A stretch of DNA of 64,000 nucleotides from a virus: positions 32,001 to 96,000 of the IMG/VR virus record IMGVR_UViG_3300035181_001055. One strand, given 5' to 3'. Both the position numbers and the translations under genes were made by a program. Numbering within the stretch: position 1 is the stretch's first letter; each line of letters opens with the position of its first letter. Of the stretch, positions 9,069 through 46,239 are shown in pieces. The notes beneath the pieces are model-generated. The model was not told where the DNA came from. It saw nothing but the letters and a program-made list of their open reading frames with translations, and did no database searches.

Positions 9069-10883
9069 ATGAAATCATTTCCCATAGATGGTTTGGATTT
9101 CGACGAAATAAAATCAAATTTCATCGAATTTCTTAAACAAGACGCAGCGTACAAAGATTACAATTTTGACGCTAGCGGAATAAGTTCTCTTATTAACATC
9201 TTCGCCTACAATGCGCATTACATTGGATACTACGTGAAAATGCTTTTGAATGAGAGCTTCATTGATAGCGCAACACAGCGCGAAACATTGCTTAGCAAAG
9301 CGAAGTTGAATGGGTATATCCCGAAAGGTGTAAGAAGCGCTAGAGCTCGTGTCATTCTGACATGCGACGCTGATATCTCGCAAGATCCTGAGAAAAAAAG
9401 CGTCATAATCCCTCGAGGGAGCTATTTCTCAGGTGCAAATACAAATAATGATAGCAGAACATTCTATGTAATCGACGATGTTATATGTTACAATAGAGAA
9501 GAATATAATGGCCCTAATAATGTTCGATTCGTTCGCTATACTTCTCCTGAATTCACTGTTTATGAAGGAGTGATGAAAAAATGGAGATTCGTAGTAAATT
9601 CGTCAGAAATCAATCAGCGATTTATCATAAAAGACGCAACAGTTGATATTGACACACTTCGAATAGACGTATATAATGATTCAAATAGCACAGAAAAAAC
9701 AGAATTCAAGTTAGCTAGCAATCTTTTTGATTTGCAACCTGATAGTAAAGTTTTCTATATAAGCACCAATGAAGACGGTTACTACGAAATATTTTTCGGT
9801 AATGATCAATTTGGAGCTAAATTAGGAAACGGAAATATGATTGAAGCCAGCTACCTTAGCTCAAAAGGAGAATCTGGCAATGGATGCAAAACCATGACGT
9901 ATGTTCAGCCGCCACAGTCCATATACACTAGAAATACCACTGCATTCTTTTCCATATTCTCAACCAATGTGACAGAAGTTAGTAATGGTGGTATGGATGA
10001 AGAAACCATAGATGATTTAAGATTCAATATACCAAATCATTACCGTCGTCAGAATAGAATTGTAACTGAAAGTGATTATAGAAGTATATTGTTAAATGAG
10101 TTTAGAAATATTGATAGCATAAATGTGTGGGGTGGCGAAAAAAATTATACACGAGAATATGGAACTGTTTTTATTTGCATAAAACCAAAGTACGGATTGA
10201 CTCTAAGCGGCTACGCTCGAGAGGAAATTGAGCAGATACTAACGAAATATGGCGTTGTAGGAATTCAGCAAAAGATTGTTGATCCAGAATATTTGAAATT
10301 GGATATAAACCTATTTGTAAAGTATAACTCATCAGTCACGTATAAAAGCATAGGTGAAATCGAAAGTCTGGTATATGATATGGCTGTATCATATGGAAAA
10401 GAAAAACTCGATAAGTTTGACGCAGGGTTAAGTGAAGTTGACTTCTTGGACTATATTCGTCAAAGCGAGCCATCAATAACGAGAATTTACAGCACGAAAA
10501 CGATGTCTAAAGACGTTACAATCATATATCGTGCATCAACTGAACATATAGTTATTTTTGGAAACAAGATTGTTCAAGGAAGTTTGAAGAGCTCAGTGTT
10601 TACTTACGGAATGAACAAATGCAGTATATCTGATGACGGGAGCGGCAGTCTTTGGGTGATGAGCAACGGAGATAAGCTGATTAATAAACCGATCGGGACA
10701 ATTGATTATGAAAACGGGATCGTTAAATTTATACTTGACATCGACATTATTAGCGACACCGATTACAATAAAACTAGAGGGTTGATTGAGTTCACAGCAA
10801 ATCCAGCTCTAAATGATATCGATACTTATTTGAATAATATAATCATATTCAACAATGTCAATGTGAATGTAACTTATGCGTAA
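9069..10883 (+). CDS. gp6: Baseplate wedge subunit gp6
   Basis: LDFDEIKSNFIEFLK...YKDYNFDASG.S.L..IFAYN.HY...NESFIDSA..R and QNRIVTESDY...NVWGGE are gp6 signatures. Confidence 0.92.
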   Translation: MKSFPIDGLDFDEIKSNFIEFLKQDAAYKDYNFDASGISSLINIFAYNAHYIGYYVKMLLNESFIDSATQRETLLSKAKLNGYIPKGVRSARARVILTCDADISQDPEKKSVIIPRGSYFSGANTNNDSRTFYVIDDVICYNREEYNGPNNVRFVRYTSPEFTVYEGVMKKWRFVVNSSEINQRFIIKDATVDIDTLRIDVYNDSNSTEKTEFKLASNLFDLQPDSKVFYISTNEDGYYEIFFGNDQFGAKLGNGNMIEASYLSSKGESGNGCKTMTYVQPPQSIYTRNTTAFFSIFSTNVTEVSNGGMDEETIDDLRFNIPNHYRRQNRIVTESDYRSILLNEFRNIDSINVWGGEKNYTREYGTVFICIKPKYGLTLSGYAREEIEQILTKYGVVGIQQKIVDPEYLKLDINLFVKYNSSVTYKSIGEIESLVYDMAVSYGKEKLDKFDAGLSEVDFLDYIRQSEPSITRIYSTKTMSKDVTIIYRASTEHIVIFGNKIVQGSLKSSVFTYGMNKCSISDDGSGSLWVMSNGDKLINKPIGTIDYENGIVKFILDIDIISDTDYNKTRGLIEFTANPALNDIDTYLNNIIIFNNVNVNVTYA

Positions 10884-27903: not shown

Positions 27904-28548
27904 ATGGCAACTAATCCATATTTCAACCACCTGAAAAATAAATCTGAACAGTCTTTCTATGAAGACATAGTGATTGAGAGTATCAAGAATGCAGGGATAG
28001 ACGTCTTTTATATTCCTAGAGAATATCTAGAAATTGACCCAGTTCTTGGCGAACCTAACCAATCGAGATTCAATTCTGCATTCAGTATTGAAGTTTATTT
28101 ACAAGAAGTGACTGGTTACGGCGGCGAAGGCGACTTGATGTCGAAATTCGGATTGCAGATGACAGACACTGCTACATTTATGATGAGCAGAAAGAGATTC
28201 AATGACTTGAACATCCCTAATAGAATCAGACCTCGAGAAGGTGATCTGATTTACGTAGGTGACACTGAAAATTCAGGCTATGGCTCATTCACGAACAGCT
28301 TTTTTGAAATAAAGTACGTTGAGCATGAATCGCCTTTTTGGCAATTAGGAAGATACTTTGTGTTTGAATTGAAATGTCAATTGTTCACATACTCGTATGA
28401 GAAATTCAATACTGGTAATTCCGCAATTGATAATCTGAACAATAACGACAACGCAGCCGATCTTTCGGTGGCGATAAACAGTGCTCTTGAAACTAAGAAG
28501 AGCACTCTAATTGATTTCACAGAAAAGAATCCTTTCGGTGACCTATAA
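27904..28548 (+). CDS. gp14: Neck protein gp14
   Basis: MATNPYF...EQ..YED...ESI...G.DVFYIPR...G.GDLMSKFG...RPREGDLIY...FFEIKYVEHE.PF.QLG and a terminal NPFG. Confidence 0.92.
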   Translation: MATNPYFNHLKNKSEQSFYEDIVIESIKNAGIDVFYIPREYLEIDPVLGEPNQSRFNSAFSIEVYLQEVTGYGGEGDLMSKFGLQMTDTATFMMSRKRFNDLNIPNRIRPREGDLIYVGDTENSGYGSFTNSFFEIKYVEHESPFWQLGRYFVFELKCQLFTYSYEKFNTGNSAIDNLNNNDNAADLSVAINSALETKKSTLIDFTEKNPFGDL

Positions 28549-29273
28549 TGCCACGTCCAGTATTTTATTACAATACAATCAAGAATTTGATTGTCACTTT
28601 TGGAACTGTCTTTGATGACATCAGATTTATCAACGATGAGGGGATCGAAATAAAAGTCCCTATACATTATGCGCCGAAAGAAAAATTCGTTTCATATTTC
28701 ACTGAAAAGCCAGACTTTGACCAACTCGACATTGAAATTCAGTTACCAAGAATGGCATTTGAAATCAGCGGTCTTAATTTTGCATCTAATAGATTCGTCA
28801 ATCCTTTGAGCAGAATTAAGGATCCAACGATAGATGAAAAGAAGTACATGTTCAGCAGAATTCCGTATGATTTTCAATTCAATCTATATGTTGCCACTAA
28901 GAAATTTGAAGATAGCTTGAAAATTGTCGAGCAAATAGTTCCGTTCTTCACACCTGAATTGAATGTGACGATAAAGGATAAAGATGATTTTAGTCTTCAA
29001 ACTGACGTGCCTATCGTTTTGAATAGTGTCAGCTTCGATATCCAATATGAAGGATCTTATGACACGAAAAGAACTATCATGTGGACACTAGGATTCACAC
29101 TCAAAGGATGGCTATACGGAGATGTGAAGCAACAAAATGTCATCAAGGAAACGATAACAAATCTCACGCAGCTTGACATCAACAATAAATTTGAGACTTT
29201 GATAAGTGAAGTTGTGCCTAGAACTGCAAGCGAAAATGATCCGCACGAAATTGTGGATAGAACGGTCGAATGA
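28548..29273 (+). CDS. gp15: Tail sheath stabilizer/completion protein gp15
   Basis: FY...IK.L...FGT.F..I, VPI.YAPKEKF, LPRM.FE and Q.VEQI.PFF.P. Confidence 0.92.
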   Translation: MPRPVFYYNTIKNLIVTFGTVFDDIRFINDEGIEIKVPIHYAPKEKFVSYFTEKPDFDQLDIEIQLPRMAFEISGLNFASNRFVNPLSRIKDPTIDEKKYMFSRIPYDFQFNLYVATKKFEDSLKIVEQIVPFFTPELNVTIKDKDDFSLQTDVPIVLNSVSFDIQYEGSYDTKRTIMWTLGFTLKGWLYGDVKQQNVIKETITNLTQLDINNKFETLISEVVPRTASENDPHEIVDRTVE

Positions 29274-29746
29274 TGGATAAGATTTCACAAGCGCTAGGAA
29301 CTGCTACTGGTGTAGAAAATGATGTTGAAGCTTCAACAAATGTAGCACCATATGTAAAGAATGAAGTTATAGATTTGCCAGATAAATATCAAGAAATTAA
29401 AAACAATCTAGGTGAAGATTATGACTTTGCGAGAAGTAACTTAAGAAAAGTGCTAGAACATGCGATGTCACTGCTACCTAATGCAATATCATTAGCACGT
29501 GAAGCAGAAAGTCCAAGGATTTACGAAAGCACATCGGTTTTTATTAAAACGATTGCTGATATAAATAAAGATCTGCTTGAAATATCTGAACGTAATTTGA
29601 AACAAGGTTCTGGTAATAATAAAATCAATAGTCCACAAGAACAATCAGGTGTCGTAAATAATAACGCGATATTCGTTGGTACAACTGATGATTTATTCGC
29701 AAAATTACTTCAAGTTAGCAACGTAATTGATGATGGAAGTTTTTAG
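29270..29746 (+). CDS. gp16: Terminase small subunit gp16
   Basis: DYDFARSNL...LA.E.ESPR.YE and VNNNAIFVG.T.DL are T4-like small terminase motifs. Confidence 0.88.
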   Translation: MMDKISQALGTATGVENDVEASTNVAPYVKNEVIDLPDKYQEIKNNLGEDYDFARSNLRKVLEHAMSLLPNAISLAREAESPRIYESTSVFIKTIADINKDLLEISERNLKQGSGNNKINSPQEQSGVVNNNAIFVGTTDDLFAKLLQVSNVIDDGSF

Positions 29747-29852
29747 ATCTAATAAGAACCTAGACCCTTGCGTCAAATGTTTTTAAAGATCTAGATATTT
29801 CAAGCGATTTAATAGCGTTAGATCTTATCTACACTAGCTAATGTTACAAGTT

Positions 29853-29914
29853 AGCGACTCGCTTCACTCGTCGCTGCGTTCGTTGAATTGACTCGCTTCA
29901 CTCGTCAATTCAAC
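29853..29914. repeat. 17-bp direct repeat GACTCGCTTCACTCGTC, each copy at the tip of a hairpin
   Basis: Copies at 29856-29872 and 29890-29906. Stems are AGCGAC/GTCGCT and GTTGAATTGAC/GTCAATTCAAC. Confidence 0.9.
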
Positions 29915-29969
29915 TCACGCATGATTTTTATTTGTGCTAAATTTTATCTAGAATTAATTTAATACATAG

Positions 29970-30368
29970 TATTCCACGGGGAGAGTTACATATCTCTCTG
30001 GCTCCCGTTACCTCGAATGCGCACCAACGCATTCATCGCCTGTGATTCATGATCGACATTCGTTTTGAACGCATGCCTACTGATGAATCCTGCCGTCTCA
30101 ATGTTCTTGACTTTTGCGGATCAGTCTTGAGCATCTACCAGCAAATGCTGTCGGCACCTTTGTCGCCCGTATGGGCCAAGATAAGTAGCAAGAACCAGTA
30201 CTACACTACTTACCTACCGCTTTCTGTCAACAACTGATAACCGTGGTCGTTGATCGCTTAGCTGCTGCCTTAGGCTTACTTGCGGTCTCCCTAATAGGCT
30301 TGTGACTTGAGGGAGTATCACTTAAGCATGATGATCGTACGCGCGTGCGCGCGACTGGTTTGTATCTT
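29970..30368 (-). ncRNA. Candidate structured non-coding RNA (family unknown)
   Basis: Lies immediately downstream of a perfect minus-strand sigma70 promoter, is GC-richer than its flanks and is dense in hairpins. Confidence 0.4.
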
Positions 30369-30374
30369 CTTCAT

Positions 30375-30403
30375 ATTATATTGACATCTCTCCGCGATGT
30401 CAA
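30375..30403 (-). promoter_or_regulatory. Perfect sigma70 promoter TTGACA-N17-TATAAT with UP-like A-tract and overlapping palindrome
   Basis: Minus strand reads AAAAAAAAGG TTGACA tcgcggagagatgtcaa TATAAT. Inverted repeat TTGACATC-N7-GATGTCAA at 30381-30403. Confidence 0.85.
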
Positions 30404-30421
30404 CCTTTTTTTTGCGTCACT

Positions 30422-30429
30422 TATAAATA
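30422..30429 (+). promoter_or_regulatory. T4 late promoter TATAAATA (gp17)
   Basis: Exact consensus upstream of gp17. Confidence 0.8.
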
Positions 30430-30450: not shown

Positions 30451-32076
30451 GTGATCACGATGGCCGCTGTTTCTGATGTTCAGATTGATAGGACAGATCT
30501 ATGTTATAACGGGAATATCAAACTAAAGAAATCTGGTGTTAGCATCCCGTTCACGCAAGAACAAGTCGAAGAATATATCCGTTGCAAACGTGATATTGTA
30601 TATTTCATCAAGAATTATGTCAAGATCGTTTCTCTTGATCATGGACTAGTTCCGTTTGAATTGTATGATTTTCAAGAGGAAATGGTCAACACATTTCGAG
30701 ATAATCGTTATGTGATTTGTTTGCTTGCTCGACAGATGGGTAAAACGACAACGGTTGCTGCTTACTTGCTGTATGAGGCCATTTTCAAGAAAAATATGCG
30801 AATGGCGGTTTTAGCTAACAAAGGCGACACTGCTATAGAAATTCTCGATCGAATAAAGAAGATGTTTGAAGAACTGCCGTGGTTCTTAAAGCCAGGAGTT
30901 CAAGAATGGAATAAGAAATCGATTGAATTGAGTAATGGTTCGAAAATCATTTCTGCCGCAACAAGCTCAAGCTCCATTCGCGGTCAATCGATGAACATCA
31001 TATATCTCGATGAGCTTGCGTTCATTCAAAATGACGTCGAGTTCTTTGCTTCAACATACCCTGTCATTTCTTCAGGTAAGACGACTAAGGTTCTTATCAC
31101 ATCTACGCCTAACGGCATGAACCTTTTCTACAAGTTATGGGCTGACGCTGAAGCTGGTCGAAATAGTTTTGTTCCTAGGAAGTACTCTTGGCGTTACCAT
31201 CCGCATAGAGATGAAAAATGGAAAGAAGAAACGCTCAGAAACATTTCTCAGAAACAATTTGATCAAGAATATGAGCTGGAATTTTTTGGCAGCTCGGATA
31301 CACTTATAAGTGGCAACAAACTTCAGCAATTAACATTCATCGATCCTATTAAAACTGATACTATATTCAATGTTTATGAAGAGCCTGTTGAAGGGAAGAG
31401 TTATGTAGTGACAATTGATGTTTCTGAAGGGATTGGGAAAGACTATAGCGTAATCAATGTTTTCGACATTTCAATTCAGCCTTACAAGCAAGTCGCCGTT
31501 TACCGAAACAATATCATACCACCTTTGATGCTCGTTGATGTGGCGTATAAAATTTTGACTATGTATAATGAAGCTTATTGCATAGTTGAGTCGAATAGTA
31601 TCGGCAAAATTGTTGCTGACGGTCTTTACTTCGACCTAGAGTATGAGAATATGCTCACGTCAAAAGCAAAAGACGGAGAGAATGTGGTAAGCATCAGCGG
31701 AGAAGTTGTTGGGTTGAGGCAAACTAAAAAAACGAAGTTGATTGGTTGTAGTGCATTGAAAACTATGATTGAAAGCGGCACATTAGTAGTTACTGACTTC
31801 ATGACTGTGCAAGAACTTAGCACATTTGTTAAGCGTCATCATACATATCAAGCTGAGGACGGCAAAACAGATGACATAGTCATGACTTTGGTTTCGTTTT
31901 GCTGGTTCACCACTCAACCGTATTTCGAAGAACTGACTGATGTTAACGTTCGAGCTCTTATAAAGAGCAATTATATGAAAATGGAAGAAAACAATCATCT
32001 TATTTTCGGATTCTATGATGATGGGATTGATTACAATGATGGCGTGATCGAAGATCCTACGCTTTGGAAGAGTTGA
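30451..32076 (+). CDS. gp17: Terminase large subunit gp17
   Basis: CKRD.VYFIKNY.KIV.LD.GLVPF, Walker A LARQMGKTT, IYLDELAFI, STPNG.N.FY, D.SEGIG.DYS and DD.VM.LV.F.W. Confidence 0.97.
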   Translation: MITMAAVSDVQIDRTDLCYNGNIKLKKSGVSIPFTQEQVEEYIRCKRDIVYFIKNYVKIVSLDHGLVPFELYDFQEEMVNTFRDNRYVICLLARQMGKTTTVAAYLLYEAIFKKNMRMAVLANKGDTAIEILDRIKKMFEELPWFLKPGVQEWNKKSIELSNGSKIISAATSSSSIRGQSMNIIYLDELAFIQNDVEFFASTYPVISSGKTTKVLITSTPNGMNLFYKLWADAEAGRNSFVPRKYSWRYHPHRDEKWKEETLRNISQKQFDQEYELEFFGSSDTLISGNKLQQLTFIDPIKTDTIFNVYEEPVEGKSYVVTIDVSEGIGKDYSVINVFDISIQPYKQVAVYRNNIIPPLMLVDVAYKILTMYNEAYCIVESNSIGKIVADGLYFDLEYENMLTSKAKDGENVVSISGEVVGLRQTKKTKLIGCSALKTMIESGTLVVTDFMTVQELSTFVKRHHTYQAEDGKTDDIVMTLVSFCWFTTQPYFEELTDVNVRALIKSNYMKMEENNHLIFGFYDDGIDYNDGVIEDPTLWKS

Positions 32077-41064: not shown

Positions 41065-42560
41065 TGGCTGACATAAGAGTTAGAAAGCACGACGAGCTTT
41101 ATATAAAAATTGAAGCTGAAAGAAGTATACAGTATGAATTGCTCGATCATTTTAGCTTCTATGTGAAAGATTACAAGTACATGCCTCTCTATAAATCGGG
41201 CAAATGGGATGGCAAGATTCGTTTGTTCAATATTTCAACAGGACTGCTTCCTTCAGGACTTATTGTAGATTTGGCTAAGTTTTGCGAAAAATATGATTAC
41301 TCGCTTGAAATTGTTGATAAGGAGAGATTGAAGCCGATAAGTTTCAAGGAAGATATTGAAGAATTTCTTCATGACTTGCCTTCGATCACAAAGATGCCGC
41401 CTAGAGACGAGTATCAGTATCAGATTGATGCTGTTAAGACTTGTGTCAAGCTGAATAAAGCTCTTGTCTTGTCACCTACAGGGTCTGGTAAAAGTCATAT
41501 CATATATCTCATCGTTCGTTTTCTTCTCAGATATACTGAAGAATCGATTCTGATTTGTGTTCCGACGACATCACTGGTTGAGCAGATGGTTAGTGACTTT
41601 GCAAGTTATGTGAATGATGATTTTGACGTTGAAACGATGATTGGCAAGATATATAGTGGGAAGGAAAAGATTACGAGCAAGAGGGTTGTTGTTTCAACAT
41701 GGCAGAGCATATACAAACTACCGCCAGAGTGGTTTTCTAGATTTGGCGGGTTCATATGCGATGAAGCTCATCAAGCAGATAGCGGCAGCATCACTAAGAT
41801 TGTAGGAAAACTCTCACATGCTCCATTCAGATATGGTTTTACGGGAACTCTCGATGGAAGTAAAACGCATGACGTGAGTTTGAGAGGGATGTTCGGGCCC
41901 ATCATCAAAACCACAACAACGAAGAAGTTAATGGATGATGGTGTATTGTCGGGTTTGAAAATAGATGTTATAATGCTTCAATATAGCAACGACGATTGTA
42001 AATTTGTTTCAAAGAATTGCAAGAAATATCAAGATGAGATAGATTGGCTAGTGAATAATGAGAAACGAAACAAATTTATCATAGCAACTGCTTTCTCTCA
42101 ACCAAAGAATACACTGGTTCTGTTTAATTTTGTTGGCGGTCATGGAGAAAGACTATACAAATATGCTCTTGATAAATCTTCTGAATTTGGTAAAGAAGTC
42201 TACTTCGTCCATGGAAATATCAAGGTTGAAGAAAGAGAGCGAATAAGACAACTTGTGGAAAATAAAGATAACATTATCATTTTTGCCAGTTACGGGACAT
42301 TTAGTACTGGCGTCAATATGAAGAATTTGCACACCGTTATATTTGCTCACCCTTTCAAGGCTCGCATACGTAACTTGCAATCGATAGGAAGAGCCCTTCG
42401 CAGAAGTAGCGGAAAGGAATCAGCTAAGCTGGTTGACATCGGCGACGATCTGTCTTATAATGGCAGAAAAAATGTATCGCTCGAACATCTAGTCGAGAGG
42501 CTTAAAATTTATGAGTCAGAACAATTCGAATACGTCGTTAGAAAAAGAGATCTCGGATAA
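41061..42560 (+). CDS. uvsW: SF2 DNA helicase UvsW
   Basis: F.F.V..YK.MP.YK.G.WDGKIRL, SPTGSGKS, DEAH, GFTGT, ASYGTFSTGVN and LQSIGR.LR. Confidence 0.95.
   Translation: MMADIRVRKHDELYIKIEAERSIQYELLDHFSFYVKDYKYMPLYKSGKWDGKIRLFNISTGLLPSGLIVDLAKFCEKYDYSLEIVDKERLKPISFKEDIEEFLHDLPSITKMPPRDEYQYQIDAVKTCVKLNKALVLSPTGSGKSHIIYLIVRFLLRYTEESILICVPTTSLVEQMVSDFASYVNDDFDVETMIGKIYSGKEKITSKRVVVSTWQSIYKLPPEWFSRFGGFICDEAHQADSGSITKIVGKLSHAPFRYGFTGTLDGSKTHDVSLRGMFGPIIKTTTTKKLMDDGVLSGLKIDVIMLQYSNDDCKFVSKNCKKYQDEIDWLVNNEKRNKFIIATAFSQPKNTLVLFNFVGGHGERLYKYALDKSSEFGKEVYFVHGNIKVEERERIRQLVENKDNIIIFASYGTFSTGVNMKNLHTVIFAHPFKARIRNLQSIGRALRRSSGKESAKLVDIGDDLSYNGRKNVSLEHLVERLKIYESEQFEYVVRKRDLG
42433..42461 (+). promoter_or_regulatory. 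sigma70 early promoter (perfect) inside the uvsW 3' end
   Basis: TTGACA tcggcgacgatctgtct TATAAT with a 17-nt spacer, upstream of the 42511 ORF, gp55 and gp47. Confidence 0.85.
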
Positions 42561-44493: not shown

Positions 44494-46214
44494 TTGTTTT
44501 TCATACTATTCGATACAAGAATATATTGAGTTTCGGCAATATGATGACCGAGATTCAGCTAGATAGAAGCCCTACAACTCTGATACAAGGGAAGAATGGC
44601 GGAGGAAAGAGCACCTTACTAGATGCTATCTGTTACGCTCTTTTCGGTAAACCGTTTCGTAGAATCAATCGCCCTCAGTTGATGAATCACAAAAACAAGA
44701 GAGAGTTGCTAACGGAGATTGAGTTCTCAATCAAGGACTCTCGTTACATGGTTCGTCGCGGCATGAACCCGCAAGTGTTTGAGATTTACCGTGATGGTGA
44801 GCTAATAAATCAAAATGCAGCGACGCGAGACTACCAAGAATATCTAGAGACTAACATTCTCAATTTTGATTATTCTGCGTTTACACAAATTGTTATTCTA
44901 GGAAAAGCAACGTACGTTAGCTTTATGCGCTTGACGTCTGAACAGCGTAGGAAGTTCATAGAGAGCATTCTGGGTTTGAATATTTTTAGCGCGATGGTTG
45001 AGATTCATCGTGTTAAAATTGCAGAGCTCAAAGAAAAGATAAATGAAATCAAAGGCGCGATATCTGTTGCTAAAGAAAAGATAGAGGTTCGAGAAAATTA
45101 TATACGTAAACTTGAAGCTGATGCTATCGCAAAAAGAACAGATTTGATTGCCAAGATCGATGCTAATATTGAAATGATTAAGAATGAAATCAATAGCATC
45201 GACGAAAAAATAAATGAGTTAGAATCTTCCAGGATATCGGTCGACGAAAGAGAGATCGAAAGCTTAGAATCTCGCATTAACCAACTGAGCAGTTTCATTG
45301 CGAAGAGTGAAGTTCGATACAATCAGATGATGAAAGATTTGAGATTTTTTGTTGATAATGATATATGCCCTACTTGTAGTCAGCCAATTGAGAATGATAT
45401 AAAACAGACAAAAATATCTGAGCTCGATAGGAAAATGAAAGAGATTTCAGATATTATTGATGATTTGAGAGCAAAGAGCGGTGAGGCGATGTCTGCTCTG
45501 AGAGAAATCAACAGCGCGGTTGAAATAAACCATCAAATAGGAAAGCAATTGTCAGCTCTGATTGCCAGTAAAGAAGAGAAGAGCAGACAAATTTCTTTGC
45601 TCAATTCGGAGAAAAATAGAGAAAATGATGATGACAAGGAAAAAATTGACGTCGAGAAGAAAACTCTCAATGCTCTTTGCGACACTTATGATAAGCTAGT
45701 TGACAAGAAATCAGAACTTCTGGAGAAATTTGAGTACTTTGATCTGATTTCTAGTATGCTGAAAGACACTGGTATTAAGCGTATGGTTATTCGCAAGTAC
45801 ATTCCTTTAATTAACAGAATAACAAACGACCATCTCAAGAATTTAGGTTTCTTCGTCAAATTTACTTTGGATGAAGACTTCAATGAAAAGATTCTAGCTC
45901 GTGGGATTGATGAACTGAGTTATTTCAATTTCAGTGAAGGAGAAAAGCTGCGAATTGATCTTGCCATACTGATGACATGGCGAGAAATTGCTAAAATGCA
46001 GAATAAGATGAGCACTAACCTTCTGATTTTTGACGAGATCTTTGACAGCTCGATGGATCAGGCGGGAGTCGACGCGTTCGTTGAGCTGCTCGGCAGAATG
46101 AAGAACACCAATGTGTTTGTTATCAGCCACACGCCAGACAAGCTGGCAGACAAGTTCCGAAGCAGCATCAGCTTCGAGAAAGAGAACGGGTTCAGCAGGA
46201 TCGTGACTGCTTGA
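44490..46214 (+). CDS. gp46: Recombination ATPase gp46 (Rad50-like)
   Basis: YKN.LSFGN, Walker A GKNGGGKST, zinc hook CPTC.Q, FSEGEK.RIDLA, Walker B LIFDEIFDSS.D and ISH. Confidence 0.96.
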   Translation: MIVFHTIRYKNILSFGNMMTEIQLDRSPTTLIQGKNGGGKSTLLDAICYALFGKPFRRINRPQLMNHKNKRELLTEIEFSIKDSRYMVRRGMNPQVFEIYRDGELINQNAATRDYQEYLETNILNFDYSAFTQIVILGKATYVSFMRLTSEQRRKFIESILGLNIFSAMVEIHRVKIAELKEKINEIKGAISVAKEKIEVRENYIRKLEADAIAKRTDLIAKIDANIEMIKNEINSIDEKINELESSRISVDEREIESLESRINQLSSFIAKSEVRYNQMMKDLRFFVDNDICPTCSQPIENDIKQTKISELDRKMKEISDIIDDLRAKSGEAMSALREINSAVEINHQIGKQLSALIASKEEKSRQISLLNSEKNRENDDDKEKIDVEKKTLNALCDTYDKLVDKKSELLEKFEYFDLISSMLKDTGIKRMVIRKYIPLINRITNDHLKNLGFFVKFTLDEDFNEKILARGIDELSYFNFSEGEKLRIDLAILMTWREIAKMQNKMSTNLLIFDEIFDSSMDQAGVDAFVELLGRMKNTNVFVISHTPDKLADKFRSSISFEKENGFSRIVTA

Positions 46215-46239
46215 CATCCTGGCCGTTCCATGCTATAAT
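46211..46239 (+). promoter_or_regulatory. sigma70 early promoter (perfect, extended -10) for gp45
   Basis: TTGACA tcctggccgttccatgc TATAAT with a 17-nt spacer and TGn. Confidence 0.88.

Follow-up and report, generated by a model that had tools for sequence, protein, structure and literature searches.

A predicted early, pseudoknotted non-coding RNA gene in the gap between the terminase genes of an uncultured T4-like phage

In an uncultured T4-like phage, the genes for the small terminase subunit (gp16) and the large terminase subunit (gp17) are separated by a 713-nt gap without open reading frames (ORFs), and the question raised by this locus is what such a gap encodes. The locus lies in a 64,000-nt stretch of DNA (the window; positions 32,001 to 96,000 of IMG/VR virus record IMGVR_UViG_3300035181_001055), which forms part of a 126.7-kb contig and to which all coordinates given without a contig name refer. 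A first-pass annotation had described a perfect minus-strand sigma70 promoter firing into a hairpin-dense segment, and had left open whether the product is a replication primer RNA or a new phage structured RNA. The second option is now strongly supported by a conserved promoter, a covarying pseudoknotted fold and the lack of a matching Rfam family. The gap most probably (roughly 85%) contains an independent gene whose product, a non-coding RNA of about 395 nt, would be transcribed from the minus strand under an early promoter, fold into a pseudoknotted structure and act in trans. The promoter, the strand, the conservation, the purifying selection, the secondary structure and the pseudoknot are established at the level of sequence comparison, as set out below.

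Relatives were found by a large-terminase (TerL) search of metagenome assemblies (proteins 94% down to 58% identical), and the contigs were then retrieved. The family comprises 13 distinct members from metagenomic T4-like phages (TerL identity 58–94%), namely the window, L082, L085, L088, L087 (partial), L116, L146 (partial), L090, L091, L093, L253, L089 and L254. An ORF-less stretch of 417 to about 1900 nt follows gp16 in every relative with DNA of the gp16–gp17 junction, and wherever the flanks of a member are available, the element is placed between the two terminase genes, on the strand opposite to theirs. Both blastn and nhmmer align just the central core of the gap (about 29856–30381 in the window) in relatives with TerL 94% down to 62% identical, while the relative with 58% TerL identity was recovered by the covariance model. 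In four relatives, the core is 91, 78, 70 and 60% identical to that of the window, as compared with 63, 47, 50 and 37%, respectively, at third codon positions of the TerL gene. Because the core identity exceeds the third-codon identity of the adjacent terminase gene, the core is, by this sequence measure, under purifying selection.

Wider searches delimit the distribution of the element. The gp16 and gp17 genes abut (median gap 7 nt) in 59 IMG/VR relatives whose TerL is about 50% identical, and the covariance model finds no element in them. A motif scan of IMG/VR gives 115 stretches; four of the fetched loci carry the element and represent three phages, one of which is L082 again. In metagenome_contigs, a first motif pattern has no matches and a second has 39, all attributable to chance. 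A two-motif scan of 185,579 prokaryote genomes (one per species) returns 35 matches, which is about the chance expectation; all of them score at most 20 bits with model R1 versus at least 74 bits for family members. A blastn search of 50,697 deposited phage genomes finds nothing similar, and no further copy of the element is present within the phage genome. L254, the most divergent member, shares 61% terminase identity with a 159.5-kb IMG/VR record.

The composition of the segment agrees with its first description. Its longest minus-strand ORF is 35 aa, stops occur in all six frames, and it is GC-richer (45–49% G+C) than its flanks (32–39%), ending, as had been noted, at an AT-rich tract (about 29922–29973). 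It is also purine-rich on the minus strand, which is opposite to the adjacent plus-strand genes. A protein-coding or pseudogene reading was rejected, as there is no long ORF, all frames contain stops, and the substitutions compensate pairing and are not codon-like.

The evidence for a folded RNA is comparative. The alignments were made by MAFFT from sequence only and were not fitted to any structure. RNAalifold predicts 81 pairs from the alignment, 53 of which are compensatory. The curated structure has 18 helices with 98 pairs; standard pairs fill 94.4% of its cells versus 33–44% when the partners are slid by 1–3 columns, both sides have changed at 67 of the 98 pairs, and none of 500 shuffles reaches any observed measure. 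Model R2, which was built without L089, recovers the compact version of that member at 49.7 bits. The folding energy of the single sequence is modestly unusual (z = -2.3 for the minus strand and z = -1.3 for the plus strand), and the comparative evidence is therefore decisive. Conservation and covariation of structure in homologous gaps had been set beforehand as the test of such an RNA, and both are found, so that this test does not refute the RNA.

Five of the six stems originally listed by eye are conserved helices that covary in relatives: CTCCCT/AGGGAG corresponds to H3, TAAGTAG/CTACTTA to H8, CAGCA/TGCTG to H12, GAATGCG/CGCATTC to H16 and GAGAG/CTCTC to H18. The sixth, CGCGCG/CGCGCG, lies in a segment that is unalignable and hence unscored; by eye, its position is occupied by a hairpin of differing sequence in every relative inspected.

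In the minus sense, the structure contains 72 G·U and 10 A·C appositions, and the alifold energy of the alignment is -143 kcal/mol; for the reverse-complemented alignment the energy is 16 kcal/mol worse (-127), with 52 G·U and 32 A·C. On the ratio of G·U to A·C, the alifold energy and the orientation of the promoter taken together, the functional strand is the minus strand.

The structured core (29974–30368, minus strand; about 395 nt) comprises 16 nested helices arranged in two domains, together with two long-range pairings. The conserved sequence ACAAAC starts 6–12 nt past the -10 element in lineages with a consensus promoter, and the predicted primary 5' end is therefore part of the fold. 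A few nucleotides from this end, AACCAGU (30354–30360, minus strand) forms the 5' arm of pairing PK-A, whose 3' arm is ACUGGUU (30193–30199) in the loop of hairpin H8 (30180–30214, minus strand), where nine of the ten stem pairs covary. Five of the seven PK-A pairs covary in the scored alignment (CCAGU/ACUGG, CUAGU/ACUAG, AUGGC/GCCAU and CAGAU/AUCUG), and further variants are seen by eye in L253 (ACGAC/GUCGU) and L254 (GACCA/UGGUC). By this covariation, PK-A is a pseudoknot that links the very 5' end of the RNA with a hairpin loop lying about 160 nt further on. A further 5' pairing, GUCGC/GCGAC, was dropped, as it conflicts with hairpin H9.

Domain 1 consists of a variable hairpin, H3, a junction that H4 closes, and the helices H7, H8 and H9. 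Hairpin H3 (30287–30315, minus strand) displays a near-invariant 18-nt loop, CAAGUCACAAGCCUAUUA, which has no complement elsewhere in the phage genome. The junction helix H4 is CCGC/GCGG, with CCAC/GUGG and CCCA/UGGG in divergent members, and H9 is mostly capped by GAAA. A near-invariant joiner, GACAAAGG(Y)GCCGA (30151–30164, minus strand), leads to domain 2, which contains H11–H13, the long hairpin H14/H15, H16 and the terminal hairpin H17/H18 (29974–30010, minus strand), the last with a conserved GUAAC loop and recovered in L089 by model R2. The internal loop of H14/H15 places AGUA opposite GA and resembles, by eye, the loop-E/bulged-G motif.

The joiner hexamer is self-complementary in all its variants (GGCGCC, GGUGCC in the window, GGCGCU and GGUAUC); in L254, two central adjacent positions are both changed. 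This pattern would fit pairing between two RNA molecules, the sequences being equally compatible with pairing in cis. Candidate cis partners are PK-B (30156–30158 with 30000–30002) and H11 (30152–30155 with 30092–30095), both of which are held as tentative because the changes are one-sided only. PK-B itself has two candidate partners, the GCC of the terminal hairpin and the GCC of AGCAGCC.

The promoter described at first was found again in full. The early sigma70-type promoter (30375–30403, minus strand) consists of TTGACA (30403–30398), a 17-nt spacer and TATAAT (30380–30375), matching the consensus at 12 of 12 positions and ranking first among the sites in a 3-kb scan; transcription is predicted to start near 30368, and the A8 tract upstream of the -35 element is present at 30413–30406. 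Across the genome, perfect TTGACA-N17-TATAAT sites number 17 (15 on the plus strand and 2 on the minus strand) versus none for the reversed control pattern, and 7 of the 17 share the extended -35 sequence TTGACATC. So uniform a set of early promoters is unusual and points to a canonical sigma70 in the host. The RNA promoter is, as judged from its sequence, one of the regular early promoters of the phage, oriented against the flow of late genes. The 17 sites carry G+C-rich spacers (window examples at 9649–9677, 42433–42461 and 46211–46239). A second minus-strand promoter-like site, TTGACA-17-TACAAT (11/12; 30595–30623), falls within the 5' portion of the gp17 gene; it has the same direction as the RNA promoter and is about 220 nt upstream of it. 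Perfect hexamers with 17-nt spacing precede the element in six lineages (window, L082, L085, L088, L090 and L089), their spacers being unrelated, and near-consensus versions are found upstream of it in L093, L253 and L254.

The -35 box had also been taken for one arm of an operator-like palindrome, TTGACATC-N7-GATGTCAA (30381–30403). The palindrome is there, but the operator reading is not supported: L082 and L085, the closest relatives, lack the second arm, and the TTGACATC arm is the usual extended -35. Elsewhere, L090 has TTGACA-N6-TGTCAA and L088 a weak version. On the plus strand, the same sequence forms a terminator-like hairpin followed by T8 (30381–30413; 8-bp stem, 7-nt loop, then CCTTTTTTTT), which matches the description of an intrinsic terminator (a G+C-containing hairpin and a U-run). 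Its function as a terminator is uncertain, given that L082 and L085 do not conserve the hairpin.

At the other end, the core is followed by an AT-rich spacer (29922–29973, minus strand), which is unconserved in sequence and AU-rich over about 50–70 nt in the relatives inspected; this spacer is the likely region of 3'-end formation of the RNA. Beyond it are two G+C-rich hairpins (29854–29874, and arms 29875–29892 with 29904–29921), whose tips read CGAGUGAAGCGAG on the minus strand, a motif that has no other occurrence in the 126.7-kb genome and recurs at the homologous place in relatives. In the plus-strand reading, a U-run (29925–29933) comes after the second and larger of these hairpins; the arrangement, also found in L082, looks like the intrinsic terminator of the gp13–gp16 genes. 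The two hairpins may also form a 3' block for the RNA. The RNA gene is, in terms of predicted signals, bracketed by plus-strand stops, with the late promoter of gp17 beyond.

Between these hairpins and gp16 lies an iteron-like stretch (29743–29830) with three AGATCT/GATC-containing motifs (at 29745, 29787 and 29820). Repeats occupy the same place in L116 (five perfect 26-bp tandem units; L116:6408-6538) and in L090 (four repeat units of about 95 bp that include the CTATTAGC motif; L090:2695-3016). These lineage-specific repeats on the gp16 side may represent iterons, sites bound by terminase (pac) or nothing more than expanded repeats.

A mechanism consistent with these features can be proposed. 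Host sigma70 RNA polymerase would initiate at the consensus early promoter of the phage, within a few nucleotides of the conserved ACAAAC, and AACCAGU would then pair with the hairpin loop about 160 nt downstream to form the pseudoknot, the remaining sequence folding into two domains with about 16 more helices. Late read-through would be kept out of the RNA gene by the plus-strand terminators that flank it, and the 3' end would probably form either within the AU-rich spacer or at the pair of G+C-rich hairpins. The RNA is expected to be abundant early in infection and to act in trans through its three-dimensional fold, binding a protein of the phage or the host as its partner, decoy or scaffold, the invariant loops possibly serving as contact surfaces for protein or for other RNA copies and the always-palindromic GGCGCC element possibly mediating self-association. 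By analogy, such a generic role with a protein seems the most likely among the specific roles. A bolder proposal is a new machine RNA for packaging or replication, that is, a pRNA-like terminase cofactor oligomerising via GGCGCC, or a ribozyme or RNA-only assembly, not a passive regulatory transcript; this is a long shot.

The best-surviving rival, which is nonetheless unlikely, is a replication primer or origin RNA of the ColE1 RNA II or T4 oriF/oriG type, where a hybrid formed in the AT-rich tract about 400 nt downstream primes DNA synthesis and the repeats are iterons. The layout of the members inspected (a strong promoter, a folded RNA of about 400 nt and then an AT-rich tract) would suit such a role, as would the iteron-like or tandem repeats between the tract and gp16 in the window, L116 and L090 and the excess of G on the RNA strand. 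Hairpins at the locus also contain GCGAAGC-like motifs, which form very stable DNA mini-hairpins and have been reported near some phage origins. However, the promoter is of the early -35/-10 type (TTGACA) and lacks a TGCTT-like MotA box, so it is not a T4 middle promoter, and the AT-rich tract begins about 400 nt past the start and not directly after it, as it does at origins of the oriF/oriG type. A promoter scan finds no plus-strand RNA I-like site inside 29974–30368, Rfam gives no match to RNAI or to ColE1-related families, and the GC skew does not change sign at the locus. Furthermore, the AT-rich tract and the repeats are unconserved in sequence whereas the 18-nt RNA loops are near-invariant, which suggests specific tertiary or protein contacts; the near-invariant loops argue for a fold-dependent function beyond priming.

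An RNA linked to packaging, either a terminase cofactor like phi29 pRNA or an RNA acting with the pac-like repeats downstream of gp16, is quite improbable. Its location between the terminase genes is invariant across the clade, even where ORFs are inserted on the gp17 side, and the 59 relatives with about 50% TerL identity have abutting gp16 and gp17 and no such RNA. The always self-complementary hexamer could mediate oligomerisation, GATC-containing repeats adjoin gp16, and phi29 pRNA is likewise an early transcript. Against this, the synteny is possibly just inherited, and the RNA (about 395 nt versus about 174 nt for pRNA) has no pRNA similarity and no Rfam match. T4-type motors are not known to need an RNA, and this phage has an ordinary small terminase; in three lineages, moreover, inserted ORFs separate the RNA from gp17.

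Less probable again is a cis element, in which the leftward early transcript is an antisense or collision barrier to the late gp13–gp16 operon, or an insulator before gp17, and its structure is secondary. The transcript is convergent with gp16 and shares hairpins with it, terminator-like plus-strand hairpins stand at both ends of the RNA gene, and the promoter is back-to-back with the late promoter of gp17. Antisense or roadblock action, however, needs no 16 covarying helices, pseudoknot or invariant loops, and the conserved part does not overlap gp16, the overlap-prone AT-rich spacer being the least conserved. The weakest explanation, a functional plus strand (a gp17 leader, a gp16 3' untranslated region or another plus-strand RNA) or the relic of a decayed protein gene or mobile element, can draw on the plus-strand orientation of all neighbouring genes, on the hairpin and T8 at 30381–30413, which could end a plus-strand RNA, and on the frequency of homing-endonuclease relics between genes of T4-like phages, but it is hardly credible in view of the G·U and A·C counts and the better alifold energy of the minus sense, the plus-strand terminator that precedes the element, the gp17 late promoter downstream of it and the stops in all frames.

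Several points weigh against a trans-acting, minus-strand RNA gene. No canonical minus-strand terminator follows the core, and no clear consensus promoter is seen in L087, L116 or L146. The family is phylogenetically narrow and small (n = 13), so part of the covariation counts repeats inherited changes. The use of the promoter, the ends of the RNA and its abundance are all predictions, the trans-acting, protein-binding mechanism is drawn from analogy only, and an origin-type reading accounts just as well for the downstream AT-rich tract and repeats. The comparative support is unusually good for so few sequences.

The RNA was also compared with known families. Rfam 15 (4227 families) was searched by cmscan with E up to 10, using the elements of the window, L090 and L093, and gives no consistent family; the matches are weak, mutually inconsistent snoRNA- or miRNA-type ones far under the gathering scores. 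The families covered include RNase P RNA, tmRNA, group I and II introns, 6S, SRP RNA, pRNA, GOLLD, ROOL, OLE, raiA, HEARO and RNAI. The initial judgement that the segment is not a tRNA, tmRNA, RNase P RNA or intron holds, as ARAGORN finds no tRNA or tmRNA and Rfam 15 no match. Likenesses noticed by eye to the CR-IV region of RNase P (GACAGAA...), to the SRP helix 8 motif AGCAGCCAAG and to 16S primer regions were rejected, since the order and helices do not fit and the models give no match. No description of such an RNA was found in full-text literature searches. As judged by these searches, the RNA belongs to no described RNA family and represents a new family at a fixed locus of a T4-like clade.

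Cultured phages may offer further cases. The closest cultured large terminases, about 54% identical, are those of Stenotrophomonas, Acidovorax, Variovorax and Xanthomonas phages, and the relatives considered are the Stenotrophomonas Menderavirus phages Ps15 and IME-SM1, Xanthomonas phage X1, Acidovorax phage ACP17 and Variovorax phage V45v66. ORF-less gaps between the small and large terminase genes measure 507 nt in Ps15 and the other Menderavirus phages, 660 nt in ACP17, 582 nt in V45v66 and 497 nt in X1 (loci L306:1982-2488, L307:1889-2548, L308:1877-2458 and L309:1956-2452, respectively) and are mostly unannotated in their records. They are conserved in pairs, over 217 nt between Ps15 and X1 and over 365 nt between ACP17 and V45v66, and by eye the Ps15 gap contains a minus-strand TTGTTT-17-TATAAT. 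The gaps of Ps15, ACP17, V45v66 and X1 give no match with models R1 and R2, nhmmer or Rfam, and the few short resemblances to the element seen by eye are unproven. Either highly diverged homologues or different elements may occupy these gaps; the sequences make a homologue of this distant kind conceivable in Menderavirus-type phages.

The genes around the locus are all on the plus strand. The gene for gp15, the tail sheath stabiliser (28548–29273), precedes gp16 (29270–29746), which is identified by PHROG as a terminase small subunit (E 7e-20), scores slightly below the curated cut-off of 25 against Pfam DNA_Packaging (E 6e-5, 23.4 bits) and is convergent with the RNA gene. The gene for gp17 (30460–32076, with its ATG at 30460) is identified as a terminase large subunit (PHROG, E 5e-67; called product 538 aa) and is followed by that for the sheath protein gp18 (from 32147). 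The T4-type late promoter read upstream of the gp17 ATG, TATAAATA (30422–30429, plus strand), is back-to-back with the RNA promoter, both lying at the positions first given, and ATAAATA motifs resembling it are present in L082, L085 and L093.

Extra ORFs lie between the element and gp17 in three lineages (L082, L116/L086 and L253). In L082, the closest relative (TerL 94% identical), the RNA promoter is separated from gp17 by a 240-aa ORF (L082:3181-3903, plus strand) that copies large terminase residues 1–228 at 61% identity; by sequence it is an incomplete and diverged second copy of the N-terminal ATPase region. In L116 and L086 the DNA before gp17 holds one 284-aa ORF and three small ones (L116:7530-8904 and L086:371-1739), and in L253 it holds a 424-aa ORF (L253:2779-4053); no significant Pfam domain was found in the 284-aa, the small or the 424-aa ORFs. 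The stretch separating the RNA gene from gp17 is a hot spot for insertions. Three independent assemblies break within the element or at most 200 nt from it (L087:1, L146:1 and L089:1-200); inverted or tandem repeats at the element may interrupt assembly, or the region may be near a physical genome end.

Large, intricately folded RNAs of unclear biochemistry are rare, and those that have been solved repeatedly gave new biology, such as ribozymes, riboswitches, guide RNAs and RNA cages. To our knowledge, no such RNA is known in T4-like phages, the best-studied phage family. The RNA described here keeps one place in its T4-like lineage, between the two terminase genes. Its promoter is defined, its predicted 5' end belongs to the fold, its pseudoknot is supported and its architecture has two domains. 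Its size of about 395 nt and its 13 natural variants provide material for in vitro transcription, chemical probing and cryo-electron microscopy (cryo-EM), and the gaps at the same place in cultured Stenotrophomonas, Xanthomonas, Acidovorax and Variovorax phages provide a route to genetics. More generally, unannotated gaps in phage structural operons can conceal early, oppositely oriented RNA genes.

Among known systems, phi29 pRNA is likewise a structured phage RNA with an early promoter near packaging genes, and self-pairing is possible in the present RNA; the latter, however, has no Rfam pRNA match and is more than twice the size, and its phage has T4-type large and small terminases. With ColE1 RNA II and T4 oriF/oriG it shares a promoter-driven transcript running into an AT-rich tract, and RNA II is also a folded RNA of about 500 nt whose structure matters, but the present locus has no RNA I-type promoter and its loops are kept more strongly than priming needs. 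GOLLD and ROOL are large ornate RNAs of phages or bacteria that have Rfam families and are shown by cryo-EM to form multimers (bioRxiv 10.1101/2024.12.08.627333). The present RNA differs from them in its smaller size (about 395 nt), in having no match in Rfam 15, and in its setting, as no tRNA genes adjoin it or occur in the 64-kb window and it is confined to a fixed terminase locus of one T4-like clade. Like GOLLD and ROOL, it is a large, multi-helix, pseudoknotted non-coding RNA carried by phages and recognised by covariation, with possible self-complementary elements.

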